Positions 16,710-52,082 of a stretch of DNA of 64,000 nt are shown here, one piece after another; the first letter of the stretch is position 1; every line of letters begins with the position of its first letter. The stretch is taken from contig OZ250183.1 of the NCBI GenBank assembly GCA_965238225.1, positions 1-64,000 on the forward strand. Reading direction: 5' to 3'. The position numbers and the translations under genes were made by a program. Source of the DNA: Gammaproteobacteria bacterium. GTDB taxonomy: Bacteria > Pseudomonadota > Gammaproteobacteria > Eutrophobiales > Eutrophobiaceae. The notes under the pieces were generated by a model. It was given only the letters and a program-made list of their open reading frames with translations. It was not told the DNA's origin and ran no database searches.

Positions 16710-19151
16710 ATGTTGCGATTTGTGCTCAATCTAATCTTTTCTTTTTTTATATTTGGACTAATATTTATTGTCGGATTGTCTTGGTATTTCCTATCTCAAT
16801 TGCCTGATATAGGTAAATTACAAGATATAAAATTTCAGGTTCCATTGCGGATTTATAGTCAAGATGACTCGCTCATTGCAGAGTTTGGTGAAAAAAGACG
16901 GCGGCCTGTCTCAATAGATGAGGTACCTACTACAATCATACATGCCTTTCTCGCCGCAGAAGATGATCGCTTTTACCAACATTATGGGGTTGACTGGCAA
17001 GGCATCGCGCGTGCAGCTGTACATCTAATTAGAACAGGCAGGAAAACGCAAGGTGGAAGTACAATTACCATGCAGGTTGCTAGGAATTTTTTTCTTAGTC
17101 GTGAAAGAACTTACCTGAGGAAACTAAATGAAATTTTTCTAGCACTTAAAATTGAACGGGAATTATCTAAAGACAAAATATTAGAATTGTATCTGAACAA
17201 GATTTATCTAGGCCATCGCTCCTATGGCATTGCCGCTGCCTCACAAGTATATTACGGTGTCGGCATAGATGAACTTAATTTGGCTCAAATAGCTATGCTT
17301 GCATCCTTGCCAAAAGCACCTTCATCAACAAACCCGGTAAGCAACTCTGCTCGAGCAAAAATCAGACGAGATTACGTTTTACAACGTATGCTTGAGGAGA
17401 ATTTTCTTACAGAAACAGATTATCAAACAGCGGTTAACTCTCCCATCACTGCAAGCCTGCATAATCTCTTTATAGAAACAGAGGCACCCTATGTTGCTGA
17501 AATGGTAAGGAAACAATTGCTTGAACAATATGGTAACAGTGCTTACACAAATGGCTTAGTAGTGACCACAACTATCAAGGACAAGAACCAAGCTGCAGCT
17601 AACCATGCACTGCGAAAAACATTATCCAAATATGACGAGTTCCACGGCTATCGTGGTTCTGAACATCATTATGATTTGCAGACAAGCGATAGTGAAATGG
17701 AATGGCAGCGCCTGCTCGAAAGTTTTCCTATAATCGGCAGCCTGTATCCAGCTCTCATCGTACAGGTCAATGAAGAATCTATCACCGGTTATTTATCAGG
17801 AATCGGCTTGATTGATGTTGAATGGTCTGGACTGTCATGGGCTCACGCTTACCAGAATGAAAATCGAAGAGGTGTAAAACCAAAATCTGCATCTGAGTTT
17901 CTTAAAATAGGTGATGTCATAAGGCTCACTGAAGACAGTGAAAATAACTGGAAGCTTACGCAGATCCCTGAAATAGAAGGTAGCTTCGTTGCAATGAATC
18001 CAAACGATGGCTCAACTTTGGCTCTGACTGGAGGGTTTGACTACCGCCGCAGTAAATTTAACCGTGTCACTCAAGCCTTCAGACAACCAGGCTCAGGATT
18101 TAAGCCTTTCATTTATTCAGCGGCTCTTGCTGCAGGCAATACTGCTGCAACACTTATTAATGATGCGCCAGTCGTATTTGAAACCCCTGGCACTGAAGAT
18201 GTTTGGCGACCAGAAAATTACAGTCATAAAAGTTATGGCCCCACCAGACTACGCGAAGCACTTATACATTCTCGTAATTTGGTGTCGATCAGATTGCTAC
18301 ACAATATTGGTATCCCTTTTGCCTTAGAACACATCAAAAAATTTGGTTTCAACATCAATGAATTGCCAAAAAATTTATCGCTTGCACTCGGCAGTGCAAC
18401 TTTATCTCCTTGGCAAATGGCAAGTGCATATTGCATTTTCGCCAATGGCGGTTATAAAGTTGAACCCTACCTCATTGAGACCATAGCAACAAACGATGGT
18501 GAAATTCTCTATCAAGCCGAACCTGTATCTGTGTGCCAAACATGTATTGAACAAGAGAATTATCCTGTCAATGAATTATCAAGCAACAATTCTCTGGAAG
18601 AAGAATTTCAATCTGAACAATATCCAGTTCAAGCTGCAAAAAAATTAATCTATGCAAAACACATTGTTGATGAACGCAATATATGGATCATGAATTCGAT
18701 CACCCGAGATGTAATCAAGCACGGTACTGGCCGTAAAGCTTTAGCACTAAAACGCCAAGACATGTCAGGTAAGACAGGCACAACTAATGATCAAAGAGAT
18801 GCTTGGTTTTTTGGATATAATGCGGACACTGTTGGTGTGGCGTGGGTAGGCTTCGATAATTTTCGACCACTCGGCAACAAGGAAACTGGAGGGCGTACTG
18901 CATTACCTATCTGGCTTAAGTATATGAAGACCGTATTGGAAGGGACACCCGAACATATCTTACCTGAACCATCAGGACTTGTTCGTGCCCGTATTAATAA
19001 GATAACAGGCAAATTGGCACACCCTAATGACCCTGATGTCATGTTTGAAATCTTCCGCACAGAATATGCACCAACAGACTCAGATAATGAAACTCAGCCG
19101 CCAGCATTTGACAGAGATTCAGAAAATTCAGAAATTATCGACCTTTTTTAA
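16710..19151 (+). CDS. mrcA: penicillin-binding protein 1A
   Basis: Transglycosylase EDDRF/GGSTITMQ; transpeptidase SGFK, SRN, KTG motifs; divergent from pilM. Confidence 0.95.
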   Translation: MLRFVLNLIFSFFIFGLIFIVGLSWYFLSQLPDIGKLQDIKFQVPLRIYSQDDSLIAEFGEKRRRPVSIDEVPTTIIHAFLAAEDDRFYQHYGVDWQGIARAAVHLIRTGRKTQGGSTITMQVARNFFLSRERTYLRKLNEIFLALKIERELSKDKILELYLNKIYLGHRSYGIAAASQVYYGVGIDELNLAQIAMLASLPKAPSSTNPVSNSARAKIRRDYVLQRMLEENFLTETDYQTAVNSPITASLHNLFIETEAPYVAEMVRKQLLEQYGNSAYTNGLVVTTTIKDKNQAAANHALRKTLSKYDEFHGYRGSEHHYDLQTSDSEMEWQRLLESFPIIGSLYPALIVQVNEESITGYLSGIGLIDVEWSGLSWAHAYQNENRRGVKPKSASEFLKIGDVIRLTEDSENNWKLTQIPEIEGSFVAMNPNDGSTLALTGGFDYRRSKFNRVTQAFRQPGSGFKPFIYSAALAAGNTAATLINDAPVVFETPGTEDVWRPENYSHKSYGPTRLREALIHSRNLVSIRLLHNIGIPFALEHIKKFGFNINELPKNLSLALGSATLSPWQMASAYCIFANGGYKVEPYLIETIATNDGEILYQAEPVSVCQTCIEQENYPVNELSSNNSLEEEFQSEQYPVQAAKKLIYAKHIVDERNIWIMNSITRDVIKHGTGRKALALKRQDMSGKTGTTNDQRDAWFFGYNADTVGVAWVGFDNFRPLGNKETGGRTALPIWLKYMKTVLEGTPEHILPEPSGLVRARINKITGKLAHPNDPDVMFEIFRTEYAPTDSDNETQPPAFDRDSENSEIIDLF

Positions 19152-19362
19152 AATTGCAAGTTAGTGCAATATAAGGTTGTCTGCCAGTCAGGTTTTAAGA
19201 AAAAAGCTTGGTATGCCAATATCGAAACCGAATGTTTTTCATCTTTATTGACGAAAAGCCTACATAAATGCACATCAATGTCAAAAAGATGTAATCTTGA
19301 GACAGGCAAGCAGATAAGTTATTACTACACTTTTTGTTACGCATGGGTAATGATCAATCATT

Positions 19363-21606
19363 ATGTTTATTCTTCGCGTTGCACTTAACTCCCCCCTGCG
19401 TAGCCTATTTGACTATCTTCTCCCTGATAATCAACCCGCCTGCTATTTTGCCCCAGGACAAAGACTACAGGTTCCGTTTGGCAAAAGCAGTGTTCGTATT
19501 GGTATCATTATTTCCTTGGCAGACACAACTCAGGTACCAAAACATAAACTGAAAAAAGCTCTGATGCTATTAGATGAAACACCGCTATTCCCAGCGCAGC
19601 ATCTCAAACTTATAGAATGGGCCAGCCATTATTATTGTTACCCCATCGGCAGCACAGTATTTACGTCCATCCCCTCTTCATTACGCAAAGGCAAAGCTGC
19701 AAAAATTAAGCAGGAGATCATCTGGTGTCTAACTGCTCGTGGAAAAATTTATGAGGGAGCATCAAATCCAGATAAACTTTCTCGTGCAAAAAAACAATTG
19801 AAGATATTTCAATTCATAAAAAAACATAAAAATGGCGTATCACATGCACACATAAAAAATGAATTTAAACATACACAAAATCCACTTAACGAACTATTAG
19901 AAAAAAAATTAATTAAAAAAATAGAAGCAACAATAAAAAAACCCAACGAGGCAACTCCTTATAAAAATGATAATGCATGGATTCTAAAACTAAACAAAGA
20001 ACAGAAAAATGCAATAGATAAAATTATTATTTCCTCGAACACTTACCATGCCTTCCTTCTCAATGGTATTACCGGTAGTGGTAAAACTGAAATCTATTTG
20101 CGACTTATTCGACATATATTAGAGGCAGACAAACAGGTGCTTATTTTGACTCCTGAAATCGGGCTCACACCTCAATTCATTGAGTGCTTCAAAGAGAGAT
20201 TTGGAGATAATATCGTTGCTCTACACTCTGGCTTATCCGAAGGTGAGCGATTAACTGCCTGGCTAAAAGCACGCGATGGAATAACATCTGTCGTCCTCGG
20301 AACACGCTCTGCCATTTGGACACCGATGCCAAAATTGGGAATGATTATTATTGACGAAGAACATGACCTTTCCTACAAACAGCAGGATGGCTTACGTTAT
20401 TCAGCAAGGGATATTGCTCTGATACGCGGACAAAGAGAAAAAATTCCTGTAGTTCTTGGGTCAGCAACACCTTCTATGGAGTCAATGAAAAATACCAGAG
20501 ATGGGCGCTACCAGGAACTCTTGTTATCTAAACGAGTTAACAATGCAAAGCTACCTTATATCCAGCTCCATAATATCAGAAATGAAAAAATGCACGGGGC
20601 AATTGCGCAGTATTTATTGAAAAATATCAAACAATGCCTGCATAATAAACAACAAACATTATTATTTCTTAATCGTCGTGGCTACGCGCCAGTTATCATG
20701 TGTCATGACTGTGGTTTTATCTCACAGTGCCCTCGTTGTAATATTTACATAACATTTCATAAACACAAAAATCGATTGTATTGCCATCATTGTGAATACA
20801 ATCAACCCTTACCAGATACATGCCCTAATTGTTCAGGGGACAAAATTATAGAAATTGGCCACGGTACAGAACGATTAGCAGAAACATTGGCAGAACTATT
20901 TCCTGAAGCGAAAATATTAAGAATCGATCGAGACAGCACTCGACGTAAAGGATCCATGAAAAAAATGCTGGATGATATCCATGCGGGTAATGCAGATATT
21001 CTTATAGGCACACAAATGCTGGCCAAAGGTCATCACTTCCCCAAGCTTACGCTGGTTGGAATTATTGATATTGATAATGCTCTTTTCAGTGTCGATTATC
21101 GAGCGAGCGAGCGTATGGCGCAACTTTTGATGCAGGTCAGTGGACGTGCAGGTCGCGGAGATTCTCTGGGGACTGTGATTGTCCAAACCCATTATCCTGA
21201 ACACCCATTACTCAATAAATTAGCACTACATGATTATGCACAATTTACGCAGTTACTACTTGAAGAACGACAACAGACACAGCTACCGCCATTTTCATTT
21301 CAGGTATTGGTACGTGCGGAATCAAACCGACAACAAGATGCTATGAAATTTCTGAATATTGCCAAAACAAGATTACAAATTCTAAGCCAAGGAAAGCTGG
21401 AAATTTACGGCCCAATTTCAGCTCCCATGGAAAAACGAGCAGGGCGTTATCGGCTGCACCTAATGATTCAGGCCGAAGACAGACAGACCATAAAAAATTT
21501 TATAAGTCCTTGGATAGAAGGATCTGACACAGAGAGCCTTGATCAACTTCCTGAGGCACGTAAAGTACGATGGTCTGTGGATGTTGATCCGCAGGACATG
21601 ATTTAA
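19363..21606 (+). CDS. priA: primosomal protein N'
   Basis: GITGSGKT, DEEH, Cys-rich zinc region, QVSGRAGR, DVDP C-terminus. Confidence 0.96.
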   Translation: MFILRVALNSPLRSLFDYLLPDNQPACYFAPGQRLQVPFGKSSVRIGIIISLADTTQVPKHKLKKALMLLDETPLFPAQHLKLIEWASHYYCYPIGSTVFTSIPSSLRKGKAAKIKQEIIWCLTARGKIYEGASNPDKLSRAKKQLKIFQFIKKHKNGVSHAHIKNEFKHTQNPLNELLEKKLIKKIEATIKKPNEATPYKNDNAWILKLNKEQKNAIDKIIISSNTYHAFLLNGITGSGKTEIYLRLIRHILEADKQVLILTPEIGLTPQFIECFKERFGDNIVALHSGLSEGERLTAWLKARDGITSVVLGTRSAIWTPMPKLGMIIIDEEHDLSYKQQDGLRYSARDIALIRGQREKIPVVLGSATPSMESMKNTRDGRYQELLLSKRVNNAKLPYIQLHNIRNEKMHGAIAQYLLKNIKQCLHNKQQTLLFLNRRGYAPVIMCHDCGFISQCPRCNIYITFHKHKNRLYCHHCEYNQPLPDTCPNCSGDKIIEIGHGTERLAETLAELFPEAKILRIDRDSTRRKGSMKKMLDDIHAGNADILIGTQMLAKGHHFPKLTLVGIIDIDNALFSVDYRASERMAQLLMQVSGRAGRGDSLGTVIVQTHYPEHPLLNKLALHDYAQFTQLLLEERQQTQLPPFSFQVLVRAESNRQQDAMKFLNIAKTRLQILSQGKLEIYGPISAPMEKRAGRYRLHLMIQAEDRQTIKNFISPWIEGSDTESLDQLPEARKVRWSVDVDPQDMI

Positions 21607-22143: not shown

Positions 22144-23880
22144 TTGAAGCAAGAATTACAAAAACTCCTCATGGAGGCTATTTCAATCGTTCAAGAAAAG
22201 ATGGATATTTCATTCTCTATCATTGATGAGATACAAATAGAAAGAACTCGTAATAAATCGCATGGTGATTACGCCTGCAATATCGCCATGGTACTTGCCA
22301 AACAAGCGAAGACAAACCCCAAGCAATTGGCTGCTTTATTACTTGAAAATCTACCTGAATCGGAAATTATCGAACGTATCGAAATTGCCAAACTAGGATT
22401 CATTAATTTTTTCCTCAAACAGCAGTCTCGTCTCAATATCATTACTAACATCCTGCAAACAGCTGAAACCTATGGTCATTCAGAGTTTGGGTCTGGGAAA
22501 TCGATATTGCTTGAATTCGTTTCGGTCAACCCCACAGGGCCTTTACATGTGGGTCACGGACGTGGGGCTGCTTATGGTGCTGCAGTTTCTGATTTACTTA
22601 AAGCTATTGGTTATAAGGTAGATAAAGAGTATTACGTCAACGATGCCGGACGGCAAATGGATATCCTGACTATCAGTATCTGGCTCCGCTATCTTGAGCG
22701 ATGTGGAATAAAAATTGATTTTCCTGAAAATGCTTACCAAGGAAATTACATTCGCGACATCGCAGATAAACTCTTTAGCGTCAAACAACTATCTTTCATG
22801 TCTGACATGAGCATTGAAAAAACACATGATGATTCAGAAATATACATAGACCAATTAATTGCCTTTGCTAAAACGACACTTGCTGATGAAAATTATCAAA
22901 GCATCCTAGATTTTGGCTTAAATGAAATACTTAGTGAGATACGTGAAGATCTGGCTGATTTTGGCGTTGCCTTTGACCGTTGGTTCTCTGAGCGTTCATT
23001 GTCAAATAACAATCAAGTACAAAAATATATTAATAAACTCAAGGACAGTGCTTTTGTTTATAAAGAAAAAGGTGCGCTTTGGTTTCGCTCAACCGAATTT
23101 GGGGACGAAAAAAATCGAGTGATCGTCCGTGAAAATGGACAAGCAACTTATTTTGCATCAGATATTGCTTATCACATGGAAAAATTCTCACGAGGCTATG
23201 ACAAGGTCATTAATATCTGGGGCGCAGATCATCATGGATATATTGCCAGAATAAAGGCAGCACTTTCTGCGCTTAATAAAAATCCTGATGCCCTTAAGAT
23301 ATTATTGGTTCAATTTGCAACGCTATATCGGGACGCTAAAAAATTACCTATGTCTACCCGGGCAGGACAGTTCGTTACTTTAAAAGAATTACGCGATGAA
23401 ATAGGAAATGATGCCACGCGGTTTTTCTATATCATGCGCAGAAGTGATCAACATCTTGAATTTGATTTGGATCTGGCAAAATCAAAGTCCAATAAAAATC
23501 CTGTTTATTATATCCAGTATGCACACGCTAGGATATGCAGCGTACTAAGACAAATAAAGGAAAAAGGACTCACGTATGATGCCGAGGCAGGACAAAAAAG
23601 CCTGCATACCCTAACCGAAGAAGCCGAAGAGAAATTAATCACGACCTTATCCCGTTATCCGGAAATTATACATTCTGCCGCGACAGAATATGAGCCTCAT
23701 CAAGTTGCTTATTACTTAATAGATCTAGCAAACGAGTTCCACAGTTACTATAACTCATGTCAATTTATTGTTGATTCTGATGATTTAAGAAATGCACGTC
23801 TTAATCTTATCAGTGCCAGCAAGCAGGTTATCTACAACGGACTTGGGATACTGGGTGTATCTACGCCAGAAAAAATGTAA
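22144..23880 (+). CDS. argS: arginine--tRNA ligase
   Basis: HGDYACN, NPTGPLHVGH (HIGH), WGADHHGY, MSTR, YYIQYAHAR. Confidence 0.97.
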   Translation: MKQELQKLLMEAISIVQEKMDISFSIIDEIQIERTRNKSHGDYACNIAMVLAKQAKTNPKQLAALLLENLPESEIIERIEIAKLGFINFFLKQQSRLNIITNILQTAETYGHSEFGSGKSILLEFVSVNPTGPLHVGHGRGAAYGAAVSDLLKAIGYKVDKEYYVNDAGRQMDILTISIWLRYLERCGIKIDFPENAYQGNYIRDIADKLFSVKQLSFMSDMSIEKTHDDSEIYIDQLIAFAKTTLADENYQSILDFGLNEILSEIREDLADFGVAFDRWFSERSLSNNNQVQKYINKLKDSAFVYKEKGALWFRSTEFGDEKNRVIVRENGQATYFASDIAYHMEKFSRGYDKVINIWGADHHGYIARIKAALSALNKNPDALKILLVQFATLYRDAKKLPMSTRAGQFVTLKELRDEIGNDATRFFYIMRRSDQHLEFDLDLAKSKSNKNPVYYIQYAHARICSVLRQIKEKGLTYDAEAGQKSLHTLTEEAEEKLITTLSRYPEIIHSAATEYEPHQVAYYLIDLANEFHSYYNSCQFIVDSDDLRNARLNLISASKQVIYNGLGILGVSTPEKM

Positions 23881-23882
23881 CC

Positions 23883-24452
23883 ATGCCTAAAGATTATAAA
23901 AATATCGGTCAAGATAAAAAAATCAGGTCTGATAACGGCAATAAACTAAAATATTTCTTTGCTGGTCTGGCGGTCGGGCTGTGTGTTGCGATTGCTGTCT
24001 ATTTCTATCCGCATAAACTAGAACAGCCAACAGGAACAATGCAACCTGAAATTATCATAAAAAATCCTGAACCAGCTTTAAATATACCCAACAACATTCC
24101 CTCACCCTCGTTTGATTTCTATGAAATCCTCCCCAATGTAGAAGTTAACGTATCTGAGTGGGAGACCGAAGAAAACAAAGATATTGGGAAACAAGCTAAA
24201 TCAGACAATGAGAAAACTGAAGTCTACATCTTGCAAATTGGTTCTTTCAAACAATATGATGCCGCCAATAAAGTAAAGACAAAACTTACATCCATGAGTA
24301 TCTCTGCTGAGATACAACGTGTCGTCATTAACGGTAAAGATATAAGATACCGAGTAAGGGTCGGCCCTTACGTTGAATCAGACAAACTCTCAATGATGCG
24401 CCAACAGCTTGCTAAGAATAATCTTGATTATTTACTTTTGCGGCTTAAGTAG
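23883..24452 (+). CDS. SPOR-domain cell division protein (FtsN-like)
   Basis: N-terminal TM helix, FDFYEILP, LQIGSF, YRVRVGP; typical position after argS. Confidence 0.85.
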   Translation: MPKDYKNIGQDKKIRSDNGNKLKYFFAGLAVGLCVAIAVYFYPHKLEQPTGTMQPEIIIKNPEPALNIPNNIPSPSFDFYEILPNVEVNVSEWETEENKDIGKQAKSDNEKTEVYILQIGSFKQYDAANKVKTKLTSMSISAEIQRVVINGKDIRYRVRVGPYVESDKLSMMRQQLAKNNLDYLLLRLK

Positions 24453-24721
24453 TAAATAAACGGTTAAAATTAAACCGCCTGCCTAAGTGTAAATCGAAAA
24501 TATCAGTATCTGCAATTAAAATGATAGACACCCTCCATACTCGCAGGAGCTCTAGGTATCGGACTGAGTTCTTATGAATATCTAATGGTGAATACCATCA
24601 AATCTCACTAGATTGACGGATGCAGCCTAAGCATCTGACCGGCTGAGTAGATTACTTTCTACCTGATTGCTTATCATATACCATATACGAAAATAACGTC
24701 AATGAGACTAGGAGTAAGGGA

Positions 24722-25996
24722 TTGCCTGCAAACCATAGTGAAATCTCATCCTTCATCTGGAATGTCTGTGACGATGTTCTTCGTGGACTCTTCAAACCCC
24801 ACGAATACGGTGATATCATTCTTCCTTTCACCGTCTTGAGAAGATTGGATTGTGTATTGGAAAAACACAAAGACACCGTGATTGATCTCTACAAGGAGTA
24901 TCAACCCAAGGTGGAAGATCCCACACCCATCATCCTCAATGAGATTCACACCACCTTCTTCAACCACTCCAAATATGATCTCAACCGACTAAGACAAGAT
25001 CCATCCAATGTTCAGATGAACTTCCAGAACTATCTTGGAGGATACAGTGAAAATGTGGTGAAGGTCATAGAAAATTTCCAGTTGGAGAGACCTGTTGAGA
25101 AGTTGAATAAAAGTAATCGACTTTTCCAGTTTGTTGAAAAGTTTAGTGAGATTGATCTACACCCGAATCGTGTTTCCAACCACCAGATGGGACAGATTTT
25201 TGAGGAACTGTTGAGGAAGTTCTCTGAGATGTCCAATGAAACCAGTGGAGAACACTACACCCCTCGTGATGTGGTTCGTCTATTGGTTTCAATGGTCTTC
25301 TCTGAGGATGAAGATGATTTACAAGGACAAGGAAAGGTCAGGAGTATTTTTGATCCTTGTTGTGGAACTGGTGGAATGTTGACCATTGGTAAAGAATGGG
25401 TTCGAGACAACATCAATAACAAAGTAGACTTTCGTTTATTGGGACAGGAACTCAATCCACAAACCTTCTCAATCTGTAAGTCAGATATGATGATTACAGG
25501 AGAGAACCCTGAGAATATTAAACAAGGTTCTTCACTTTCAGAAGATCGATTTCAGGGGGAACGGTTTGACTATATGGTGACCAATCCACCGTTTGGGGTG
25601 AGTTGGAAATCTGAAAAAGATTTTGTTCAGAATGAGAGTGAGAACCCACAAGGACGATTTTCAGTTGGGACTCCAAGAACTCCAGACGGTTCTCTGTTAT
25701 TCCTTCAACATATGATCTCCAAGATGGAGGACAAGGGTAGTCGAATTGGGATTGTCTTCAATGGTTCTCCTCTTTTTACAGGGGATAGTGGAAGTGGTGA
25801 ATCAGAGATTCGGAAATGGATCATAGAGAATGACTGGTTGGAGTGTATTGTCTCCCTACCTGATCGGTTGTTTTTCAACACAGGGATCTCTACATACATC
25901 TGGATCGTCTCCAACAAAAAATCAGGTAAACGACAAGGAAAGGTTCAACTGATTGATGGTTCTTCGTTCTTCAAACTTATTGAAGAAAATCATTAG
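24722..25996 (+). CDS. hsdM: type I R-M methyltransferase subunit, N-terminal part (frameshifted)
   Basis: ILPFTVLRRLD, GEHYTPR, DPCCGTGGML (motif I), NPPF (motif IV), LFFNTGI. Confidence 0.92.
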   Translation: MPANHSEISSFIWNVCDDVLRGLFKPHEYGDIILPFTVLRRLDCVLEKHKDTVIDLYKEYQPKVEDPTPIILNEIHTTFFNHSKYDLNRLRQDPSNVQMNFQNYLGGYSENVVKVIENFQLERPVEKLNKSNRLFQFVEKFSEIDLHPNRVSNHQMGQIFEELLRKFSEMSNETSGEHYTPRDVVRLLVSMVFSEDEDDLQGQGKVRSIFDPCCGTGGMLTIGKEWVRDNINNKVDFRLLGQELNPQTFSICKSDMMITGENPENIKQGSSLSEDRFQGERFDYMVTNPPFGVSWKSEKDFVQNESENPQGRFSVGTPRTPDGSLLFLQHMISKMEDKGSRIGIVFNGSPLFTGDSGSGESEIRKWIIENDWLECIVSLPDRLFFNTGISTYIWIVSNKKSGKRQGKVQLIDGSSFFKLIEENH

Positions 25997-26735
25997 GAAA
26001 CAAGAGGAAAAGAGATCTCTGATGAGGGTCGAGAATAAGATTGTTCAACATTACCTGAACTTTGAGGAGGATGAATTCTGTAAGATTTACCCTAATGAGT
26101 TTTTTGGATACACCAAGGTCACCATTGAACAACCCAAGGTTGAAAATGGAAAGGTCGTAACCGACAGACAAGGGAATCCCAAACCAGACACCAAGAAAAG
26201 AGACTATGAACGAATTCCTCTCAGTGAGGATATTGAGGAGTACTTTCAAAGAGAGGTAAAACCACATCTTCCTGACCTGCCCGCCCCATTGCCTAATTCG
26301 GATGAATATTGTACCTATGTTCTTAAATGCAGTGATGGCTCTTTTTATAAAGGGCAAACGAAGGATATACATAGAAGACTAGAAGAACATCACAAAGGAC
26401 ACGTAAGCTGGACATCTCAAAATTTACCTATAAAACTGATCCATTGGGAAGTTTTTGATACTAGGGAAAAGGCGGTTAAACGAGAACACTACTTAAAGAC
26501 AGGCAAAGGAAGAGAATGGCTTAAAAAACACTATGAAGAAGGCAAGCTGAAATCAATGGAACGGTGGCAGGCGGGTTCTTGGATGGATAGATCCAAGGAT
26601 AAAGTGGGATATGAGATCAACTTCACCAAGTATTTTTATCAGTATAAACCTCTTAGATCACTAGAAGAGATCAGTCAGGATCTCTTGAGATTGGATAAAG
26701 AGACAGAAGGGTTGATGAAGGAGATATTGGTATGA
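25953..26735 (+). CDS. hsdM: type I R-M methyltransferase C-terminal part carrying an in-frame GIY-YIG insertion
   Basis: FGYTKVTIEQP, YFQREVKPHLPD...SWMDRSKDKVGYEINFTKYFY are HsdM C-terminal motifs, interrupted by 100 aa. Confidence 0.85.
   Translation: MMVLRSSNLLKKIIRKQEEKRSLMRVENKIVQHYLNFEEDEFCKIYPNEFFGYTKVTIEQPKVENGKVVTDRQGNPKPDTKKRDYERIPLSEDIEEYFQREVKPHLPDLPAPLPNSDEYCTYVLKCSDGSFYKGQTKDIHRRLEEHHKGHVSWTSQNLPIKLIHWEVFDTREKAVKREHYLKTGKGREWLKKHYEEGKLKSMERWQAGSWMDRSKDKVGYEINFTKYFYQYKPLRSLEEISQDLLRLDKETEGLMKEILV
26276..26575 (+). mobile_element. 300-bp in-frame insertion encoding a GIY-YIG nuclease domain, bounded by imperfect inverted repeats
   Basis: TYVLKCSDGSFYKGQT..RRLEEH..G..P..L..E.F..R..A..RE..LK.GKGR; ends CCTGCCCGCC / GGCAGGCGGG; 14 GpC inside versus none in about 1.5 kb on each side. 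Confidence 0.8.
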
Positions 26736-26752
26736 ATCCCTATCCTTCATAC

Positions 26753-27461
26753 AAAGACAGTGGGGTTGAGTGGGTTGGGGAGATTCCGAGTGGGTGGAAG
26801 ATAAATCGACTTGGAATGATGGGTGTTTATTCATCAAGTGGGATTGACAAAGAAAACAATAGAAGAGAACCATTGTAAATATGGTGAACTATATGGATGT
26901 TTATGGAAATGGTTTACATTTATTAGATAGTTCAAGGAATTATATGACAGTTAGTTGTCCTTCAACAAAGGTTTTAGAACATCAAATAAAAAAAGGTGAC
27001 TTATTGTTTCTTCCAAGTTCTGAAACCGAAGTTGATTTAGGGTTATCTTCATTGATAGATGAAGAACTACCCAACACGGTATTTTTTATCATTTGGTGAG
27101 ATACCAATTTACAGTGAAATATATAAATTCTTTTAGAAAGTTTCTTTTTAATAATTACATCGTTTCAAATGAGTTTTCTAGACAAGGGAAAGGTACTACA
27201 CGACACCATTATTGGTAGGAATGATTCAGAAATATAAATGTAGTAATTCCACCTCTCCAAGAACAACAACAAATCTCCAACTACCTTGACCACAAGACCC
27301 AACAGATTGACTCTCTGATTGAGAAGACCCAACAGAAGATTGAACTACTGAAAGAACAACGAACCTCTCTGATCAATCAGGTGGTCACCAAGGGACTCAA
27401 TCCTGATGTAAAGATGAAAGACAGTGGTGTTGAGTGGATTGGGGAGATTCCGAGTGGGTGG
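26753..27461 (+). repeat. 45-bp direct repeat pair preceding hsdS TRD1 and TRD2 (26753-26797, 27417-27461)
   Basis: AAAGACAGTGG(G/T)GTTGAGTGG(G/A)TTGGGGAGATTCCGAGTGGGTGG, 43/45 identical. Confidence 0.85.
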
Positions 27462-28078
27462 GTAGTACAAAAATAAATATTTAGTATCTTACCAAGTAAT
27501 GTCAAAAGACTCTATCCAGAAGAGGTACATTTGGTTCGTCTATGTAACTATCTGATGTCTACTATGAATTCATAAGGTGTTCGGATCTTAACTCAAAGAA
27601 ATGGAAGATTTCAACCAGACATGATATTTGATAAGTTGAGAAGTTCGAAACAATGAAGTTTGATGTATCACAAAGGATTCTGAATCCCAAGATGATATAG
27701 GAAAGATACTATTGTAACTGAATGATTTGAAATTGATGTACGTATGTGGTTATCATCTAAACAAATGATGAATTGTATCCAAGAAATGTTGTGGGTGGTA
27801 TATCATTCTTCAGGTTTATTCAGTCAGTAGAAAAGGAAAGTAATTCAACAAAATTCAGATGTGATTTACTAAAGTTTGGACTTGGAAAACAGAATTGAAA
27901 ATATGTATTTCCCAGAACCAACCATCCAAGAACAACAACAAATCGTAGACTACCTCGACAAAGAAACCACCAAGATTGACTCCACCATTGAAAAGGAAAC
28001 CCAACGAATCGATCTCCTCAAAGAATACCGTCAGTCTCTGATCTCGGAAGTGGTAACTGGAAAGGTGGATGTCCGTGA

Positions 28079-28099
28079 CCTGCCTGTCGGCAGACAAGG
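28079..28099. repeat. 21-bp palindromic in-frame insertion (encodes LPVGRQG)
   Basis: CCTGCCTGTCGGCAGACAAGG imperfect hairpin; holds the only two GpC of hsdS; similar to the ends of the 300-bp insert. Confidence 0.75.
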
Positions 28100-28111
28100 T
28101 GAGGTGGTGGT

Positions 28112-31087
28112 ATGAGTCCAACCAACTACACAGAACAAGATTTTGAGGAACACATTGAGGAACAACTCACAAACAGTGAATACCACATTGTACCGCCCAC
28201 CAAATACGACAAAACCCTCTGTCTGATTCCCTCCAAACTGATCGAATTCATTAAAGAGACTCAATCCAAAATATTTGAGAAGCTAGAACTCCAATACGGT
28301 TTAGAAACAGAATCAAAACTGACCAAACGAATATCCTCCGAAATCGAATCTCGTGGGGTGATTGATGTACTTAGAAAGGGTGTCAAGGATAGAGGATGTA
28401 CTTTTCATCTGGTCTATTTCCAACCCAAATCAGGTTTGAACCCTGACCATCAAGAACTCTACAAGAAGAACAAACTGATCACGGTTAGACAGCTGAAGTA
28501 TTCCAAACACAATGAGAATTCTATTGATATGGGAATCTTCATCAATGGGATTCCTATTATGTTGTTGGAATTGAAGAACTCTCTCACTGGTCAGAATCAC
28601 AACGATGGAATCAAACAATGGAAGTTTGATCGTGACCCAAAGGAACCCCTTTTCAAATTCAAAAGGAATCTGGTCTATTTCTCAGTAGGAAATGAAAAAG
28701 TCTCAATGACCACCCGATTGAGTGGTTCCAAGACAAGGTTCCTCCCCTTCAACAAAGATATTGAGAATCCAGTCAACCCAAAAGGACACAAAACTCATTA
28801 TCTATGGGATGACATCCTACAACCCAACTTCGTATTAGATCTGATTGAGAACTTTGTCCATATCCGAACCGAAACCGATAAGGTTTACGATCCTCAGAAA
28901 AAAAAGGTTGTAGACAAAAAGAGTGAGGTGTTGATCTTCCCTCGTTTCCATCAACTCAATGTCATCCGAAAACTGAAAAGAGATGTGGTTCAGAAGGGAT
29001 CAGGACAAAACTATCTCATTCAACACACCACAGGTTCTGGTAAATCTCTCTCTATTGGTTGGTTGAGTCATCTTCTCTCTTCACTCTATCAATCACCAAC
29101 AGACACCAATCGAATCTTTAACTCTGTGATAGTGGTGACAGACAGAAGGGTTCTGGATAAACAGATCAGTAATACCATCAAACAACTGGAACAGACTAAG
29201 GGAGTGGTGAATCCAGTTGATGAAACAGCTCAACAGTTGAAGGAGTTACTTGAGTCTGGAAAGCCAATCATCATTACCACCATCCAAATGTTTCCTTTCA
29301 TTTCTGATCAAATTCCCAAAATGAAGAATAAGAAATTCGGAGTAATAATTGATGAGGTTCATTCTTCTCAAAGTGGTGAATCCTCCAAACACTTGAAGAG
29401 ATCTTTGTCAGACACTTCATTAGATGAATTTCAAGAAGGTGAAGGAAGTGGAGATCTGACAGAAGTAGATAAATTGATATTAGATGAGATCAAGTCAAGC
29501 GGGAAACAACCCAATATTTCATACTTTGGATTCAGTGGAACTCCTAAGAACAAGACCCTTGAGATCTTTGGTACTAAGACAGACAAGGGATTACAACCTT
29601 TCGATCTCTACTCAATGAAACAGAGTTTGTCTGAAGGGTTCACTCTGGATGTCCTCCAGAACTACACCACCTATAAACGATATTTCAAACTCAACAAGGT
29701 CATAGAGGAAGATCACGAACTTCCGAAGAGTCGTGTGAAGTCAATGTTGATGAGATGGGTAGACTTACATCCACATTCTATTAGAGAAAAATCCAAGATA
29801 ATCTTGGAACACTTCATCAACCATACTCAAAACAAGATTAGTGGAAAGAGTCGTGGGATGTTGGTGACTCGTTCAAGACTTCATTGTGTGAAGTACAAAT
29901 TGGAGTTTGATAAACAGATGAAGGAGAGGGGACTTCCTTTTCGTTCACTGGTAGGGTTTTCTGGGAAGGTATATGACGAAGATAGTCATCAGGAATATAC
30001 AGAGTCTTCAATGAATGGATTCCCAGAGGGTCAAACAGAAGAAAACTTAAAAGACCCCAAGTTCAGAATCCTGATTGTAAACAACAAATTCCAGACAGGG
30101 TTTGATGAACCGATGTTACACACAATGTATGTAGACAAGAAGATGGGTGGATTACAGTGTGTTCAGACCCTCTCAAGACTGAACAGAACAATGTCAGGAA
30201 AGACCGATACCTTCGTATTGGATTTTGTGAATGACCCTGATGAAGTTGGTGAGTCCTTCCAACCTTACTTCAAAGGTTCTGTTTTAACAGAAGAGACTGA
30301 CCCCAACCGACTCTATCAGATTGAACAGGAGATAAAACAGTACAACTTGTTCCAAGAAGAAACCGTCAACCTCTATGTGGATACCTTCTACCGTGAAGAT
30401 ATTCCGATGGAGGAATTACAAGGGATTCTGGATACCGTTGTTGAGGGGTGGAATGAACTGGAAGAAGAACAGGAGAACTTCCGCAGTCATATACAGAGTT
30501 TCATTAGACTCTATGGATATATTTCACAGATCATCACATTCAAAGACATCGGATTAGAGAAACTCTACATCTTCCTTCGTGGACTCAACAAGAAACTTCC
30601 AAGAAGACCTCCCACAGATCAACCTGAAATCCTTTCAACCGTTGACTTGGAATACTTCAAGATTGAGAAGAAGTACTCCGCTAAGATTGAACTGGAAGAT
30701 GAAGAGGGTGAATTACAAGGAATAAGTGAGGATGGTGTATCTTACAATGATGATGAAGAACCCGTTGACCTACTCTCAGAGATCATCCAGAAACTCAATA
30801 ACGCATTTGATGGAGATTTCTCTGATGAAGATAGAGTGAGAATTGAGAAGATCAAAGAACAGATTGACAAGGATATAGAACTTAGAATGGTGATGGAGGG
30901 GGATAATACAGATTCCAACAAGAAGGATAAGTTCAACCGTACCTTTGAAAAATTTTTGACAGATTTGGTAGATGAAAATATTGACTTCTACAATAAACTA
31001 AAAGAACCAAAGAAAAACAGATTTATGAAGGATCGTATGTATGAATTGTATGCAAAATCAATCAATGAGATGAGACCGAGTATTTAG
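28112..31087 (+). CDS. hsdR: type I R-M restriction subunit
   Basis: Nuclease D..INGIP...ELK, Walker A QHTTGSGKS, DEVH, FSGTP, FQTGFDEP, QTLSRLNR. Confidence 0.93.
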   Translation: MSPTNYTEQDFEEHIEEQLTNSEYHIVPPTKYDKTLCLIPSKLIEFIKETQSKIFEKLELQYGLETESKLTKRISSEIESRGVIDVLRKGVKDRGCTFHLVYFQPKSGLNPDHQELYKKNKLITVRQLKYSKHNENSIDMGIFINGIPIMLLELKNSLTGQNHNDGIKQWKFDRDPKEPLFKFKRNLVYFSVGNEKVSMTTRLSGSKTRFLPFNKDIENPVNPKGHKTHYLWDDILQPNFVLDLIENFVHIRTETDKVYDPQKKKVVDKKSEVLIFPRFHQLNVIRKLKRDVVQKGSGQNYLIQHTTGSGKSLSIGWLSHLLSSLYQSPTDTNRIFNSVIVVTDRRVLDKQISNTIKQLEQTKGVVNPVDETAQQLKELLESGKPIIITTIQMFPFISDQIPKMKNKKFGVIIDEVHSSQSGESSKHLKRSLSDTSLDEFQEGEGSGDLTEVDKLILDEIKSSGKQPNISYFGFSGTPKNKTLEIFGTKTDKGLQPFDLYSMKQSLSEGFTLDVLQNYTTYKRYFKLNKVIEEDHELPKSRVKSMLMRWVDLHPHSIREKSKIILEHFINHTQNKISGKSRGMLVTRSRLHCVKYKLEFDKQMKERGLPFRSLVGFSGKVYDEDSHQEYTESSMNGFPEGQTEENLKDPKFRILIVNNKFQTGFDEPMLHTMYVDKKMGGLQCVQTLSRLNRTMSGKTDTFVLDFVNDPDEVGESFQPYFKGSVLTEETDPNRLYQIEQEIKQYNLFQEETVNLYVDTFYREDIPMEELQGILDTVVEGWNELEEEQENFRSHIQSFIRLYGYISQIITFKDIGLEKLYIFLRGLNKKLPRRPPTDQPEILSTVDLEYFKIEKKYSAKIELEDEEGELQGISEDGVSYNDDEEPVDLLSEIIQKLNNAFDGDFSDEDRVRIEKIKEQIDKDIELRMVMEGDNTDSNKKDKFNRTFEKFLTDLVDENIDFYNKLKEPKKNRFMKDRMYELYAKSINEMRPSI

Positions 31088-31229
31088 TTAGCCGATCAAT
31101 CCTCAATTCGGATGACCAATGGGAATATACAATCCAAACGATTCATCGAATGATATCGACCGACGGAATTTAGTGACAATCGATTTTGGAGTCGGTAGAC
31201 CGCAACCATTCCTCTGCCGGCAGTGGCTA

Positions 31230-31498: not shown

Positions 31499-31888
31499 AT
31501 GGGAAAGGTTAGGCCGATTGTCGTTTGCATAGACGATAATCCATCAATGATGAAATTGCTTAAAAAAAGCACAGAAAATCTGGATATTGATTTAACTGTG
31601 TTTGCTTCTGCGGAAGATGCGTGGCCATATCTGGAGTCAAATGCACCGGATCTCATTATTCTCAACATCATACTGCCTAACAAAGATGGTTTGTCCTTGC
31701 TAAAAGACTTAAGAGGACTGCCAAAACATCAAAAAACTCAGGTAATCATCATAAGCTCAAAAGATTATGAACAGGATCGAGCCATCGCTAAACAGCTTGG
31801 CGCGTTAGAGTTTATCCCAAAACCCATACCAATGCAGACAATTGCGGATATTGTAGTAAAATACACCCAAGCGACCTCAAAAACCTAG
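31499..31888 (+). CDS. single-domain response regulator with Asp->Asn at the phosphoacceptor
   Basis: IDDN acidic pocket, PDLIILNIILP, ISS, FIPKP. Confidence 0.85.
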   Translation: MGKVRPIVVCIDDNPSMMKLLKKSTENLDIDLTVFASAEDAWPYLESNAPDLIILNIILPNKDGLSLLKDLRGLPKHQKTQVIIISSKDYEQDRAIAKQLGALEFIPKPIPMQTIADIVVKYTQATSKT

Positions 31889-49207: not shown

Positions 49208-50620
49208 CTAGGATCGGCGCTTTTGCGTCCATTGCACTGCCATATTTGTTGCTCTGTTTATTTGAGAGATAGTCATGTTCTTAGCAAGATAATCTCTATT
49301 TTCTGCTCCGACCGCAAGACCATTTCCCGCTGCAATATTGAAGAATGTGTGTGCCAATACAACATCCTGAGCAATTCCTGCGCCATTGGCATACATCACC
49401 CCTAAGTTGTATTGTGCTTGAGCAAGCCCTTGTTGTGCTGCTTGTTTGTACCAGTACGCCGCCTTCCCAGCATTCTGGACAACGCCGTCTCCATGTTCAT
49501 GTATCACCCCTAAATTATATTGTGCCTTAGCATAGTCTTGTTGTGCTGCTTTTTTATACCACAGAATTGCCTGCCTGTTATTCTCGGGCACGCCTTTTCC
49601 ATGGTCATATATAAAACCTAGATTATATTGTGCCTTAGCATAGTCTTGTTGTGCTGCTTTTTTAAACCAGTGAATTGCCTGCTTGGCATCTTGAGGCACG
49701 TCTTGTCCTTTGACATACATCAATCCTAGATTGAATTGTGCTTCAGCATCTCCTTGTTGTGCTGCTTTTTTATACCACACAAATGCTTGACTGGTATCTT
49801 GAGACATACCTTTTTCTTTAGCATGCAGCAAGCCTAGATTATATTGCGCCTTGGCATCTCCTTGTTGTGCTGCTTTTTCATACCAATACACTGCTTTTTT
49901 AGTATCTTTAGGAATACCTTGTCCTCCCTGGTACATCACCCCTAGATTGTATTGTGCTTGAGCAAGCCCTTGTTGTGCTGCTTTTTTAAACCAATACGCT
50001 GCCTGCTTTTTATCTTGGGGCACGCCTTGTCCTTTGGCATATATAAATCCTAGATCGAATTGTGCAACGGCAAATCCTTGTTTGGCGGCTTCTTTAAACC
50101 ACTTAACTGCCTGACTAACATCTTGGGGCACGCCTTGTCCTTTGGCATACATCAGCCCTAAACTGTATTGTGCTTTAACATCTCCTTGTTTGGCGGCTTT
50201 TTTAAACCACTTAACTGCCTGACTAACATCTTGGGGCACGCCTTGTCCTTTGGCATACATCAGCCCTAGATTGTGTTGTGCACCAACAAGCTCTTGTTGC
50301 GCTGCTTTTTTCCACCACACAAATGCCTTTTTGTCATCTTGGGGCACGCCTTGTCCTTTGACATACATAAAACCTAAATTGTATTGTGCCTGAGCGAGCC
50401 CTTGTTGTGCTGCTTTTTCGTACCAATACGCTGCCTTTTTGTCATCCTTAGGAATACCTTTTCCATAGTGATACATCACCCCTAGATTGTGTTGTGCATA
50501 AAAATCGCCTTGTTTTGCTTGTGCTGTACATTCACGAAAGTCTATGCATTCCCCGGCATTTGCCAAGGGGGCAAGTGCCAGCAATAAAATGATATTAATA
50601 ATGTAGATAAGTTTTTTCAT
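49208..50620 (-). CDS. secreted Sel1-repeat protein, 11 repeats
   Basis: Signal peptide; 36-aa AQYNLG.MY..G.GV.QD...A..W..KAAQQG repeats. Confidence 0.95.
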   Translation of the reverse strand: MKKLIYIINIILLLALAPLANAGECIDFRECTAQAKQGDFYAQHNLGVMYHYGKGIPKDDKKAAYWYEKAAQQGLAQAQYNLGFMYVKGQGVPQDDKKAFVWWKKAAQQELVGAQHNLGLMYAKGQGVPQDVSQAVKWFKKAAKQGDVKAQYSLGLMYAKGQGVPQDVSQAVKWFKEAAKQGFAVAQFDLGFIYAKGQGVPQDKKQAAYWFKKAAQQGLAQAQYNLGVMYQGGQGIPKDTKKAVYWYEKAAQQGDAKAQYNLGLLHAKEKGMSQDTSQAFVWYKKAAQQGDAEAQFNLGLMYVKGQDVPQDAKQAIHWFKKAAQQDYAKAQYNLGFIYDHGKGVPENNRQAILWYKKAAQQDYAKAQYNLGVIHEHGDGVVQNAGKAAYWYKQAAQQGLAQAQYNLGVMYANGAGIAQDVVLAHTFFNIAAGNGLAVGAENRDYLAKNMTISQINRATNMAVQWTQKRRS

Positions 50621-50783
50621 TATGTTGTGTTTTATTCTATATCCTTTTGTGTCTTCTTAATTTACAGTAATACTTTTGGTACTATTATCTTACAGCAGGT
50701 AATAAATATAAAAAATTATGCTTATTGCTTATTTTTTGATCTCATTGCTTTGTTTGATCTTCCTTGTTTTTTCCTTCTGACCA

Positions 50784-52082
50784 TCAGTGCTTAGAGAGCC
50801 ATTGCCTTTCTAAATCTTCTGCCTGTTCTATCTGAGAGGCAGTCATGTGCTTTATAATAAGGGCTTTATGCTCTCTTCCGGCTGCAAGACCATTTGTCCC
50901 TGCAATATTGAAAAACATATGTGCCATTACAAAGTCTTGAGGCACACCTTTGCCATTTTTGTACATCACTCCTAAATTGTATTGTGCCCTAGAAAATCCT
51001 TGTTGTGCTGCTTTCTTAAACCAGTAAATTGCCTGCTTGGCATCTTGAGGCACGTCTTGTCCTTTCTGATACATCACCCCTAGATTGGATTGTGCTTCAG
51101 AAAACCCTTGTTGTGCTGCTCTTTTAAACCACTTAACTGCCTGCCTAGCATCTTTAGACACGCCTTGTCCTTTCTGATACATCACCCCTAAAATGAATTG
51201 GGCATCGGCATGCCCTTGTTGTGCTGCTTGTTTGTACCAGTGAATTGCCTGCTTGGCATCTTGAGGCACGCCTTGCCCATAGTGATGCATGAACCCTAGA
51301 TTGTATTGTGCTTTAACAAGCCCTTGTTGTGCTGCTTTTTCATACCAATACACCGCTTTTTTGGCATTCTGAACAACACCATCTCCTTTGTCATACATCA
51401 CCCCTAAAATGATTTGGGCATCGACATGCCCTTGCTGTGCTGCTTTTTTATACCAATGCGCTGCCTTTTTGTCGTCTTTAGGAATACCTTTTCCATAGTG
51501 ATACATAAGCCCTAGATTGTATTGTGCTTTAGCATGCCCTTGTTGTGCTGCTTTTTTATACCAATGCGCTGCCTTCTTGGCATTCTGGACAACACCATCT
51601 CCTTTGTCATACATCACCCCTAAGCTGTGTTGTGCATTAGCATAGTCTTGTTGTGCTGCTTTTTTATACCATAGAACTGCCTGCCTGTTATTCTCGGGCA
51701 CACCTTTTCCATGGTGATACATAAACCCTAAATTGTATTGTGCTTTAGCATGCCCTTGTTGTGCTGCTTTTTCATACCAATGCGCTGCCCTTTTATTATT
51801 TCGAGGTATGCTGTGTCCTTTGACATACATAAACCCTAAATTGTATTGTGCTTTAGCATGCCCTTGTTGTGCTGCTTTTTCATACCAATGCGCTGCCTTT
51901 TTGTCGTCTTTAGGAATACCTTTTCCATAGTGATACATAAGCCCTAGATTGTGTTGTGCATAAGCATCACCTTGCTCTGATTTTGTCTTACATTCATAAA
52001 AGTCTGCACACTCGCTGGCATTTGCCAAGGGCATAAATGCTGACAATAAAATGATACTAATGATGTAGGTGAGTTTTTTCAT
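50784..52082 (-). CDS. secreted Sel1-repeat protein, 10 repeats
   Basis: Same architecture; N-terminus and upstream DNA paralogous to 49208-50620. Confidence 0.95.
   Translation of the reverse strand: MKKLTYIISIILLSAFMPLANASECADFYECKTKSEQGDAYAQHNLGLMYHYGKGIPKDDKKAAHWYEKAAQQGHAKAQYNLGFMYVKGHSIPRNNKRAAHWYEKAAQQGHAKAQYNLGFMYHHGKGVPENNRQAVLWYKKAAQQDYANAQHSLGVMYDKGDGVVQNAKKAAHWYKKAAQQGHAKAQYNLGLMYHYGKGIPKDDKKAAHWYKKAAQQGHVDAQIILGVMYDKGDGVVQNAKKAVYWYEKAAQQGLVKAQYNLGFMHHYGQGVPQDAKQAIHWYKQAAQQGHADAQFILGVMYQKGQGVSKDARQAVKWFKRAAQQGFSEAQSNLGVMYQKGQDVPQDAKQAIYWFKKAAQQGFSRAQYNLGVMYKNGKGVPQDFVMAHMFFNIAGTNGLAAGREHKALIIKHMTASQIEQAEDLERQWLSKH

Follow-up and report, generated by a model that had tools for sequence, protein, structure and literature searches.

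The type I restriction-modification (R-M) operon hsdM-hsdS-hsdR at positions 24729-31090 of a 64,000-nucleotide stretch from a Eutrophobiaceae bacterium (Gammaproteobacteria; GenBank assembly GCA_965238225.1, contig OZ250183.1, positions 1 to 64,000; hereafter the window) is almost free of the dinucleotide GpC, and the proteins that it encodes are almost free of alanine. Homologous loci in other genomes and in metagenomes belong to integrative islands that carry the same depletion to completion. On balance we favour the view that the operon was acquired horizontally from a lineage of such mobile islands, and that GpC was removed there by selection at the level of the nucleic acid, probably as an extreme form of restriction avoidance.

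GpC depletion in the source genome

A genome-wide dinucleotide count gives 93,001 GpC in the 1,722,049 bp of the source genome (G000), i.e. 54 per kb and an observed/expected ratio of 1.35. The window has a G+C content of 40% and a GpC ratio of 1.2-1.7 in nearly all 2-kb bins, with a collapse at 24729-31090, where the ratio in 1-kb windows is 0.00-0.10. No GpC occurs from 24729 to 26278 (a gap of 1551 bp between the GpC at 24728 and that at 26279) or from 26572 to 28081 (1511 bp, between those at 26571 and 28082); these are the longest two GpC-free gaps in the genome, and the third and fourth (984 and 736 bp) both lie inside hsdR. This is the sole GpC desert in 1.72 Mb, all other 1-kb windows having a ratio of at least 0.47, and the deficit across hsdM-hsdS-hsdR is thus confirmed as real and far above chance expectation.

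Defined by GpC positions, the longest gaps and the 1-kb ratios, the depleted zone (24729..31090, not assigned to a strand) coincides with the coding block: it extends from two codons past the start of hsdM to the stop of hsdR, with normal GpC on both sides (24477-24728 upstream and from 31091 onward downstream). The original prediction, made from the sequence of this DNA, had placed the feature at 28112..31087; these coordinates are correct for hsdR, whilst the feature as a whole runs from 24729 to 31090.

An intact restriction subunit with four alanines

The hsdR gene (28112..31087, forward strand) is an intact open reading frame (ORF) of 991 codons, assigned as the restriction/translocase subunit from Pfam matches (HSDR_N 4e-13, SWI2_SNF2 1e-25, ResIII, T1R_D3-like), a match to PDB 2w00 (EcoR124I HsdR, E 2e-22), invariant motifs and the ratio of non-synonymous to synonymous substitution rates (dN/dS, below). 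Both an N-terminal PD-(D/E)XK nuclease motif and superfamily 2 (SF2) helicase/translocase motifs I, II, III and VI are present, and D139, E153-L-K155, GSGKS, DEVH, FSGTP and QCVQTLSRLNR are invariant across 34 HsdR relatives. Against about 110 GpC expected, the gene has 10, distributed over the three codon phases as 4, 2 and 4 (expected 42, 28 and 40). All 10 are derived single-base changes, and the four alanines of the protein (residues 373, 857, 898 and 981) derive from Ser or Thr. With 217.8 bits HsdR falls under the cut-off (284.55) of the NCBIfam hsdR model TIGR00348, and automatic annotation may therefore miss proteins of alanine-free composition. An AlphaFold2 model built from a 34-row alignment was too poor for use (mean predicted local distance difference test score 56, predicted template modelling score 0.35).

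We compared the motifs with those of real relatives of normal GpC content (14 HsdR and 11 HsdM rows). Alanine stands at the rewritten position of DEVH and of VNNKF in 13 of the 14 HsdR rows each, and of QHTTGSGKS, FSGTP and QCVQ in 9 of 14 each; for HsdM the corresponding figures are 7 of 11 (DPCCG) and 11 of 11 (GDSGS). The prediction that HsdR has 4 Ala in 991 residues, and HsdM a single one (residue 3) outside an insert, is borne out by the residue counts. Its list of eight motifs in which an ancestral alanine had been replaced holds for seven, which are present here and have alanine in normal-GpC relatives; the eighth, PDSW, is missing from all frames of 24701-26760. Normal-GpC relatives thus mostly retain alanine at the rewritten motifs, some Poribacteria HsdM with DPCCG being an exception.

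hsdM, its GIY-YIG insert and hsdS

The N6-adenine methyltransferase subunit gene hsdM (24722..26735, forward strand) occupies two frames in the assembly (24722-25996 and 25953-26735) and was assigned by Pfam (N6_Mtase 8e-60, HsdM_N 1e-24), by motifs and by its 75-83% identity to HsdM of GpC-free loci. The methyltransferase and N-terminal domains are accompanied by NPPF at 25583, DPCCGTGG at 25352 and GDSGS. The N-terminal ORF has one alanine, and the other three all lie within a 100-residue insert. Alignment with the homologous loci L001, L014 and L015 places four extra single bases in hsdM, clustered at 25974..26037 (forward strand), which cause the change of frame and an in-frame stop. A contig from X1, a sequencing run with the same organism label, is without the single bases at 25981, 25986, 26006 and 26037 (depth 18.3 of 28.2), so that the lesion may reflect strain heterogeneity or assembly error and is perhaps not real in all cells.

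The insert itself, in the C-terminal part of hsdM, is a 300-bp in-frame insertion (26277..26576, forward strand) with G/C-rich ends (CTGCCCGCC ... GGCAGGCGGG) that encodes a GIY-YIG nuclease domain (Pfam GIY-YIG 1.5e-12). It has a normal GpC content, with 14 GpC (all between 26279 and 26571) and the three alanines, and is missing from HsdM of L001, L005, L014 and L015. A seawater-metagenome contig represents the empty site, joining 26272 to 26576 with three other letters. The insert DNA is single-copy in the genome, the next protein match (about 1487212-1487418) being 33% identical, and the insert may be a small mobile domain cassette.

Between hsdM and hsdR, the specificity subunit gene hsdS (26732..28115, forward strand) was located by tblastn with HsdS of L001, L005, L014 and L015; its start overlaps hsdM and its stop overlaps hsdR, in both cases as ATGA, and it contains no GpC until 28082. 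The N-terminal, central and C-terminal conserved parts are readable and match HsdS of the same four loci. Both variable target-recognition regions are riddled with stops in the assembly (9 and 10 in frame), and 27482-27909 is uncovered in all four runs compared, X1 included. Contigs from X1 and from seawater metagenomes bridge 26797-27255 and 27461-27925 with other sequence between the conserved parts, which suggests that hsdS exists in the population as several alleles or phase variants. As it stands in the assembly hsdS, like hsdM, appears broken, and it may be dead, variable or mis-assembled.

A family of GpC-free loci

HsdR homologues (n = 119, 64-88% identical) are similarly poor in alanine: 41 have none in about 985 residues, 54 have at most 2 and 90 at most 10. 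Homologous loci were taken from species genomes (58) and from metagenomes (80), and those fetched show sharp-edged GpC-free zones. L005, in a Flavobacteriales metagenome-assembled genome (MAG), has GpC-free tracts of 8,973 and 4,003 bp with one GpC between them; L075 extends over 12 kb and 14 ORFs with zero GpC and zero alanine; and L079, L081, L093, L065, L086 and L088 have similar zones. When 12 islands are pooled, 103,978 bp contain 9 GpC (observed/expected 0.00), and 98 ORFs (30,233 residues) encode 4 alanines.

The depletion extends beyond alanine codons. Non-coding DNA of the 12 islands (8,558 bp) has 2 GpC where 167 are expected, and in the L005 island (3,932 codons) the three codon phases contain 2, 0 and 0 GpC against 130, 57 and 67 expected, the codons AGC, GGC, TGC and CGC never being used. 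This shows that the depletion acts on the GpC dinucleotide and not on alanine; alanine (GCN) and the AGC, GGC, TGC and CGC codons were lost because GpC was removed from the whole element. The GpC-free state is kept down to about 50% HsdR identity; it recurs in independent assemblies by the dozen, which span several phyla and habitats and share the replacement residues. Among genomes closer to the source, HsdR was found in none of 10 from the same genus; of 24 from the family, 2 yielded relatives, at only 41% identity. In two Marinimicrobia loci a normal-GpC gene of 381-399 residues with 18 Ala stands between GpC-poor hsdM and hsdS (L014:6501-7646, L015:6110-7309) and looks like a later passenger.

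The islands as mobile elements

The metagenomic and MAG loci are integrative islands of 8-17 kb that carry recombinases, type I R-M genes and genes without assigned function. Besides hsdM, hsdS and hsdR they encode small tyrosine recombinases (beside the R-M genes), large tyrosine integrases (523-674 residues), large and small serine recombinases, an AlpA-like gene, and DUF5655/PD-(D/E)XK, PIN and bPH_2 proteins; many island ORFs are without any family match. The gene comM, a known insertion hotspot of genomic islands, is split at the identical position by an island of about 17.3 kb in L005 and by one of about 12.5 kb in L081, with recombinases by the junction, in hosts whose ComM proteins are just 65% identical and whose flanks have a G+C of 0.34 and 0.46. 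In the right arm of the L005 comM island, 16900-20900 encodes an N4/N6 methyltransferase, part of an MvaI/BcnI-type endonuclease and two resolvases; a few GpC have entered this module, which is therefore either younger or decaying.

The recombinases share the composition of the R-M genes to different degrees. Homologues of the large tyrosine integrase of L079 (a 520-residue family) have no alanine in 46 of 78 cases, and at most 10 in 71 of 72 strong matches, down to 31% identity; the entire integrase family therefore resides in GpC-free DNA. Homologues of the large serine recombinase (n = 113) are alanine-poor in a graded manner, with 0 Ala in 2, at most 10 in 34 and more than 20 in 34. The few named members of this family are from Bacteroidota, and, judged by the recombinase families, Bacteroidota are the likely home hosts of the islands. 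One recombinase labelled Flavobacterium hibisci (P0267) has 9 Ala in 571 residues, and from it a cultured strain carrying a GpC-poor island may exist. Neither the tyrosine integrase nor the serine recombinase was matched in two samples of 401 Flavobacteriales genomes, by a method whose empty answers carry no weight.

No shared driver gene emerged when 172 GpC-poor ORFs, drawn from 33 loci, were clustered all against all, only hsdM, hsdS and hsdR being present in most loci. A phage origin was considered and rejected, IMG/VR being without relatives of HsdR or the tyrosine integrase and PHROGs returning nothing phage-like for 39 island ORFs, as was a plasmid origin, for which the top match is 43.5% identical.

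The window copy does not show the combination of recombinase and split conserved target that marks the integrative islands. No recombinase lies in or adjoining 24729-31090, which is flanked by host genes: upstream argS (22144-23880) and a SPOR-domain gene (23883-24452), assigned by Pfam, together spanning 22144..24452 on the forward strand with a GpC ratio of 1.38, and downstream a response-regulator receiver gene (31499..31888, forward strand; Pfam Response_reg 2e-22) with normal GpC counts. Elsewhere in the window, 50001-52000 is unlike its neighbouring bins, with a CpG ratio of 0.36, a GpC ratio of 1.71 and an AT skew of -0.27. Other long GpC-free gaps of the genome were considered as further deserts and rejected, being ordinary genes or a tandem repeat (G000:C1:1432205-1432801, outside the window); this repeat, of 600 bp with TIQLYNYT-type units in several frames, forms the fifth-longest gap.

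Origin, loss and return of GpC

A FastTree phylogeny of HsdR (79 rows, midpoint root) gathers all 10 GpC-free and 13 GpC-low sequences in a single 31-row clade (support 99). The 8 'normal' rows of this clade have just 19-23 Ala, and the counts rise to 32-43 and 41-59 in the clades adjacent to it. Replacement residues were followed at 29 columns with alanine in at least 8 of 11 outgroup rows: GpC-free rows have no alanine at any of them, and the replacement residue is kept at 17-23 of the 29 in relaxed members of the clade, at 11-13 in Poribacteria and at 1-7 in far outgroups. The single clade and the kept residues together argue that GpC and alanine were probably lost once and regained several times, although shared composition could attract rows of the tree to one another. 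Some Poribacteria HsdM carry DPCCG, and these look like relaxed descendants of the alanine-free ancestor.

Within this tree, HsdR of the window groups with that of a Thiodubiliella MAG (support 100), and the rewriting of its motifs is probably inherited from an old GpC-free island clade, not made in the source genome. The window copy is relaxing, with 10 new GpC in hsdR, four of them as new alanine codons. It is cargo without a vehicle, and not the best specimen of a '19-amino-acid enzyme'.

Purifying selection on the proteins and probable selection against GpC

Comparison of the window hsdR with that of L059 (802 codons, dS 0.62) gave a dN/dS of 0.12, and three other pairs gave 0.089, 0.079 and 0.063; a value near 1 was not seen, and the range of 0.06-0.12 is in line with purifying selection. 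The HsdR substitution spectrum was taken from 21 columns with alanine in at least 60% of the 14 normal-GpC relatives and read in 49 alanine-free proteins. These columns are now occupied by Gly (7), Ser (6-7), Cys (2), Thr (1-2) and Val (1), and also by His, Gln and Asn; 16 such columns in HsdM now have Ser (7), Cys (3), Gly (3), Val (1), Thr (1) and Gln (1). In alignment to normal-GpC relatives, therefore, Gly, Ser and Cys prevail and changes of Ala to Val or Thr do not dominate. Taken together, the spectrum, the dN/dS values and the normal-GpC relatives support the original proposal that GpC was selected against whilst purifying selection kept the enzymes functional.

Changes on the window lineage are mostly A>G and T>C. 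Among 989 conserved sites of its hsdM, 68 have changed to G or C, and not one of these changes made a GpC; continuing selection explains this better than mutational bias.

Short palindromes add a signature of restriction avoidance in the islands. By Markov-2 ratios, computed from 104 kb of islands and 59 kb of host flanks, the G/C-containing 4-mer palindromes of the pooled islands are scarce (GATC 0.23; CATG, CTAG and ACGT 0.33; GTAC and TCGA 0.56; CCGG 0.65), these seven being the rarest island 4-mers after those that contain GC, with AT-only palindromes at about 0.9. The same palindromes stand at 0.75-1.34 in the host flanks and near 1 in the source genome, and are thus rarer in the islands than either the islands' own composition or the host predicts. 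The set varies: GATC 0/44 and TCGA 0/16 in L075; GATC 0/43, CATG 1/25, ACGT 1/26 and TCGA 1/26 in L079; CATG, CTAG, ACGT, TCGA and CCGG all 0 in L088, with GATC at 29/40; and CATG 1/19, ACGT 1/8 and CCGG 0/5 in the window operon. This loss, differing from island to island, indicates unusually strong pressure from sequence-specific DNA cutters on these elements. Loss of GpC is the sole item of avoidance common to all islands.

Proposed explanation and alternatives

In the scheme that we favour, hsdM-hsdS-hsdR would have reached the source genome by horizontal transfer from an old integrative-island lineage. In that lineage GpC has been purged from all genes, in the three codon phases, and from non-coding DNA, under purifying selection on the proteins, with ancestral alanine replaced once, mainly by Gly, Ser or Cys. 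Selection would act on the nucleic acid and be tied to the mobile life of the element, most probably as an extreme avoidance of restriction by a barrier that targets DNA, reads GpC whatever its neighbours and has to be passed at almost all transfers. Once in the source genome, without a recombinase, the operon would have come under relaxing constraint and received the normal-GpC GIY-YIG cassette inside hsdM. The broader proposition that aquatic bacteria harbour a nucleic-acid-targeting barrier against bare GpC, from which a lineage of integrative defence islands escaped by deleting the dinucleotide, giving 19-amino-acid systems in which integrases, recombinases, methyltransferases and a motor nuclease of 1000 residues all do without alanine, is one that we put forward tentatively, as a possibility slightly short of even.

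GpC loss is universal among the islands and unmatched by CpG, so that something must read GpC itself. Several observations nevertheless weigh on the other side. CpG is only reduced (0.39-0.89), although its removal would cost no amino acid, and ordinary avoidance of many GC-containing sites therefore fails to explain a total loss of GpC paid for in alanine. The NGCN contexts of regained GpC are unbiased and so betray no longer motif, and a C5-methyltransferase (PF00145) was found neither in the source genome nor in the host of L005 (G001), with broken matches in two further genomes (G002 and G004). Neither these searches nor those of the shared genes and of phage identified a GpC-reading agent, no search having been aimed at an enzyme specific for GpC, and no bacterial nuclease with GpC as its whole recognition site is known to us. 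The return of GpC in the window copy is uneven, with 0 in hsdM and hsdS (about 3 kb, the insert apart) versus 10 in hsdR, and the tree is a midpoint-rooted FastTree in which an alanine-free composition could draw rows together. Finally, since GC is self-complementary, selection at the DNA level and at the RNA level is inseparable from sequence.

One competing account is mutational: GpC methylation followed by deamination, or a cytosine deaminase acting in GC context at each move, so that only sequence free of GpC is stable, with function rescued by later changes. It would accommodate the loss of GpC in every context, non-coding DNA included, and the fact that the stop-riddled regions of the window hsdS are still GpC-free; moreover, Val in DEVH and Thr in QHTTG are direct products of deamination. 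However, Val or Thr stands at just about 3 of 21 ancestral alanine columns in HsdR and 2 of 16 in HsdM. In the 12 pooled islands GT/AC has a ratio of 0.99, indicating no pile-up of deamination products, whereas GG/CC (1.46) and GA/TC (1.26) absorb the deficit. Nor is there an excess of C>T or G>A on the window lineage or a C5-methyltransferase match in G000 or G001, and the parallel loss of GATC, CATG, CTAG and ACGT is not accounted for by deamination; we consider this account unlikely. We give no greater credence, and again regard it as improbable, to selection at the RNA level, by which transcripts must survive a GC-cutting endoribonuclease (for instance a toxin-antitoxin toxin, or a CRISPR RNase with collateral activity and a dinucleotide preference), so that defence and recombinase proteins can be made during shut-off or dormancy. 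Messenger RNAs without the motif do escape sequence-specific RNases, and Cas13 enzymes have dinucleotide preferences; transcription probably covers almost the whole of the island DNA, short intergenic stretches are as depleted as coding ones, and the depleted zone of the window matches the extent of the operon. Against this, no such RNase gene is common to the islands, the island ends and the divergent and convergent intergenic regions are also GpC-free, and the strong loss of DNA palindromes shows that selection acts at the DNA level on these elements anyway.

Two further accounts are refuted and retain next to no probability. Avoidance of alanine, its tRNA or its synthetase, with the dinucleotide pattern as a secondary effect, would suit proteins with 0-1 Ala, but GpC at codon positions 2-3 and 3-1 numbers 0 and 0 where 57 and 67 are expected, and non-coding DNA is depleted equally (2 vs 167). 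A one-off event in the source genome (hypermutation or methylation damage), or an assembly or synthetic artefact, would be in keeping with the uniqueness of the zone in the genome and with the disagreement of parts of hsdM and hsdS with the X1 contigs; yet the same state and the same replacement residues recur in dozens of independent assemblies, and the pieces of the zone covered by X1, which make up most of it, differ at 0-2 positions each.

Implications and comparison with known systems

Were this explanation correct, large multi-domain enzymes and recombinases would be able to work, and to evolve over the long term, without alanine, and the recurrence of the same Gly, Ser or Cys solutions at catalytic motifs would constitute a natural data set for reduced-alphabet protein design and for judging how far an amino acid can be dispensed with. 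It would further imply a very strong selective agent on mobile DNA or RNA in common freshwater and marine bacteria, on which the islands offer a handle, and GpC-free stretches, being easily scanned, could serve as a marker for these mobile elements and their cargo, a large part of which is without known function. A full-text literature search, with subscription journals outside its scope, returned no description of GpC-free or alanine-free mobile elements or R-M systems and, as far as found, the GpC-free composition of mobile islands is undescribed so far.

In its architecture the operon resembles other type I R-M systems, with the order hsdM-hsdS-hsdR, overlapping stops and starts, the D...ELK and SF2 motifs and helical C-terminus of HsdR, and NPPF and an FxGxG-like motif in the window HsdM. 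It departs from them, as represented by EcoR124I (2w00), in the replacement of every alanine of the catalytic motifs (DEVH, QHTTGSGKS, FSGTP, QCVQ, DPCCG, GDSGS) and in its GpC-free DNA. The islands of L005 and L081 are likewise comparable with other islands that integrate in comM, unlike the window copy, which lies outside comM and has no recombinase.

Viruses provide another counterpart (for example PMC7498042 and PMC3829696), in which selection or editing leaves a mobile or parasitic genome poorer in a dinucleotide than its host. The loss of CpG in vertebrate viruses (through ZAP or methylation) and APOBEC footprints are partial, with observed/expected ratios of roughly 0.2-0.7, and erase no amino acid. 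The islands, in contrast, are bacterial, have lost GpC to a ratio of 0.00 over 104 kb, and have had an amino acid erased. Escape from endoribonucleases provides a further parallel, in that loss of a short word lets genes evade a nuclease: genes without ACA escape MazF, and GCU is the MqsR motif. Such escape concerns single genes and three-letter words of the sense strand, whereas the islands are depleted as a whole, on both strands and in non-coding DNA. Alongside the viral depletion, the closest likeness to the phenomenon is the avoidance of restriction sites by phages and promiscuous plasmids (RP4, phage genomes); as there, G/C palindromes are scarce in the islands and not in the host flanks, and the set varies by lineage. 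Where the islands differ, in a way for which we know of no parallel, is in having lost a whole dinucleotide, in all 16 contexts, at the cost of one amino acid.

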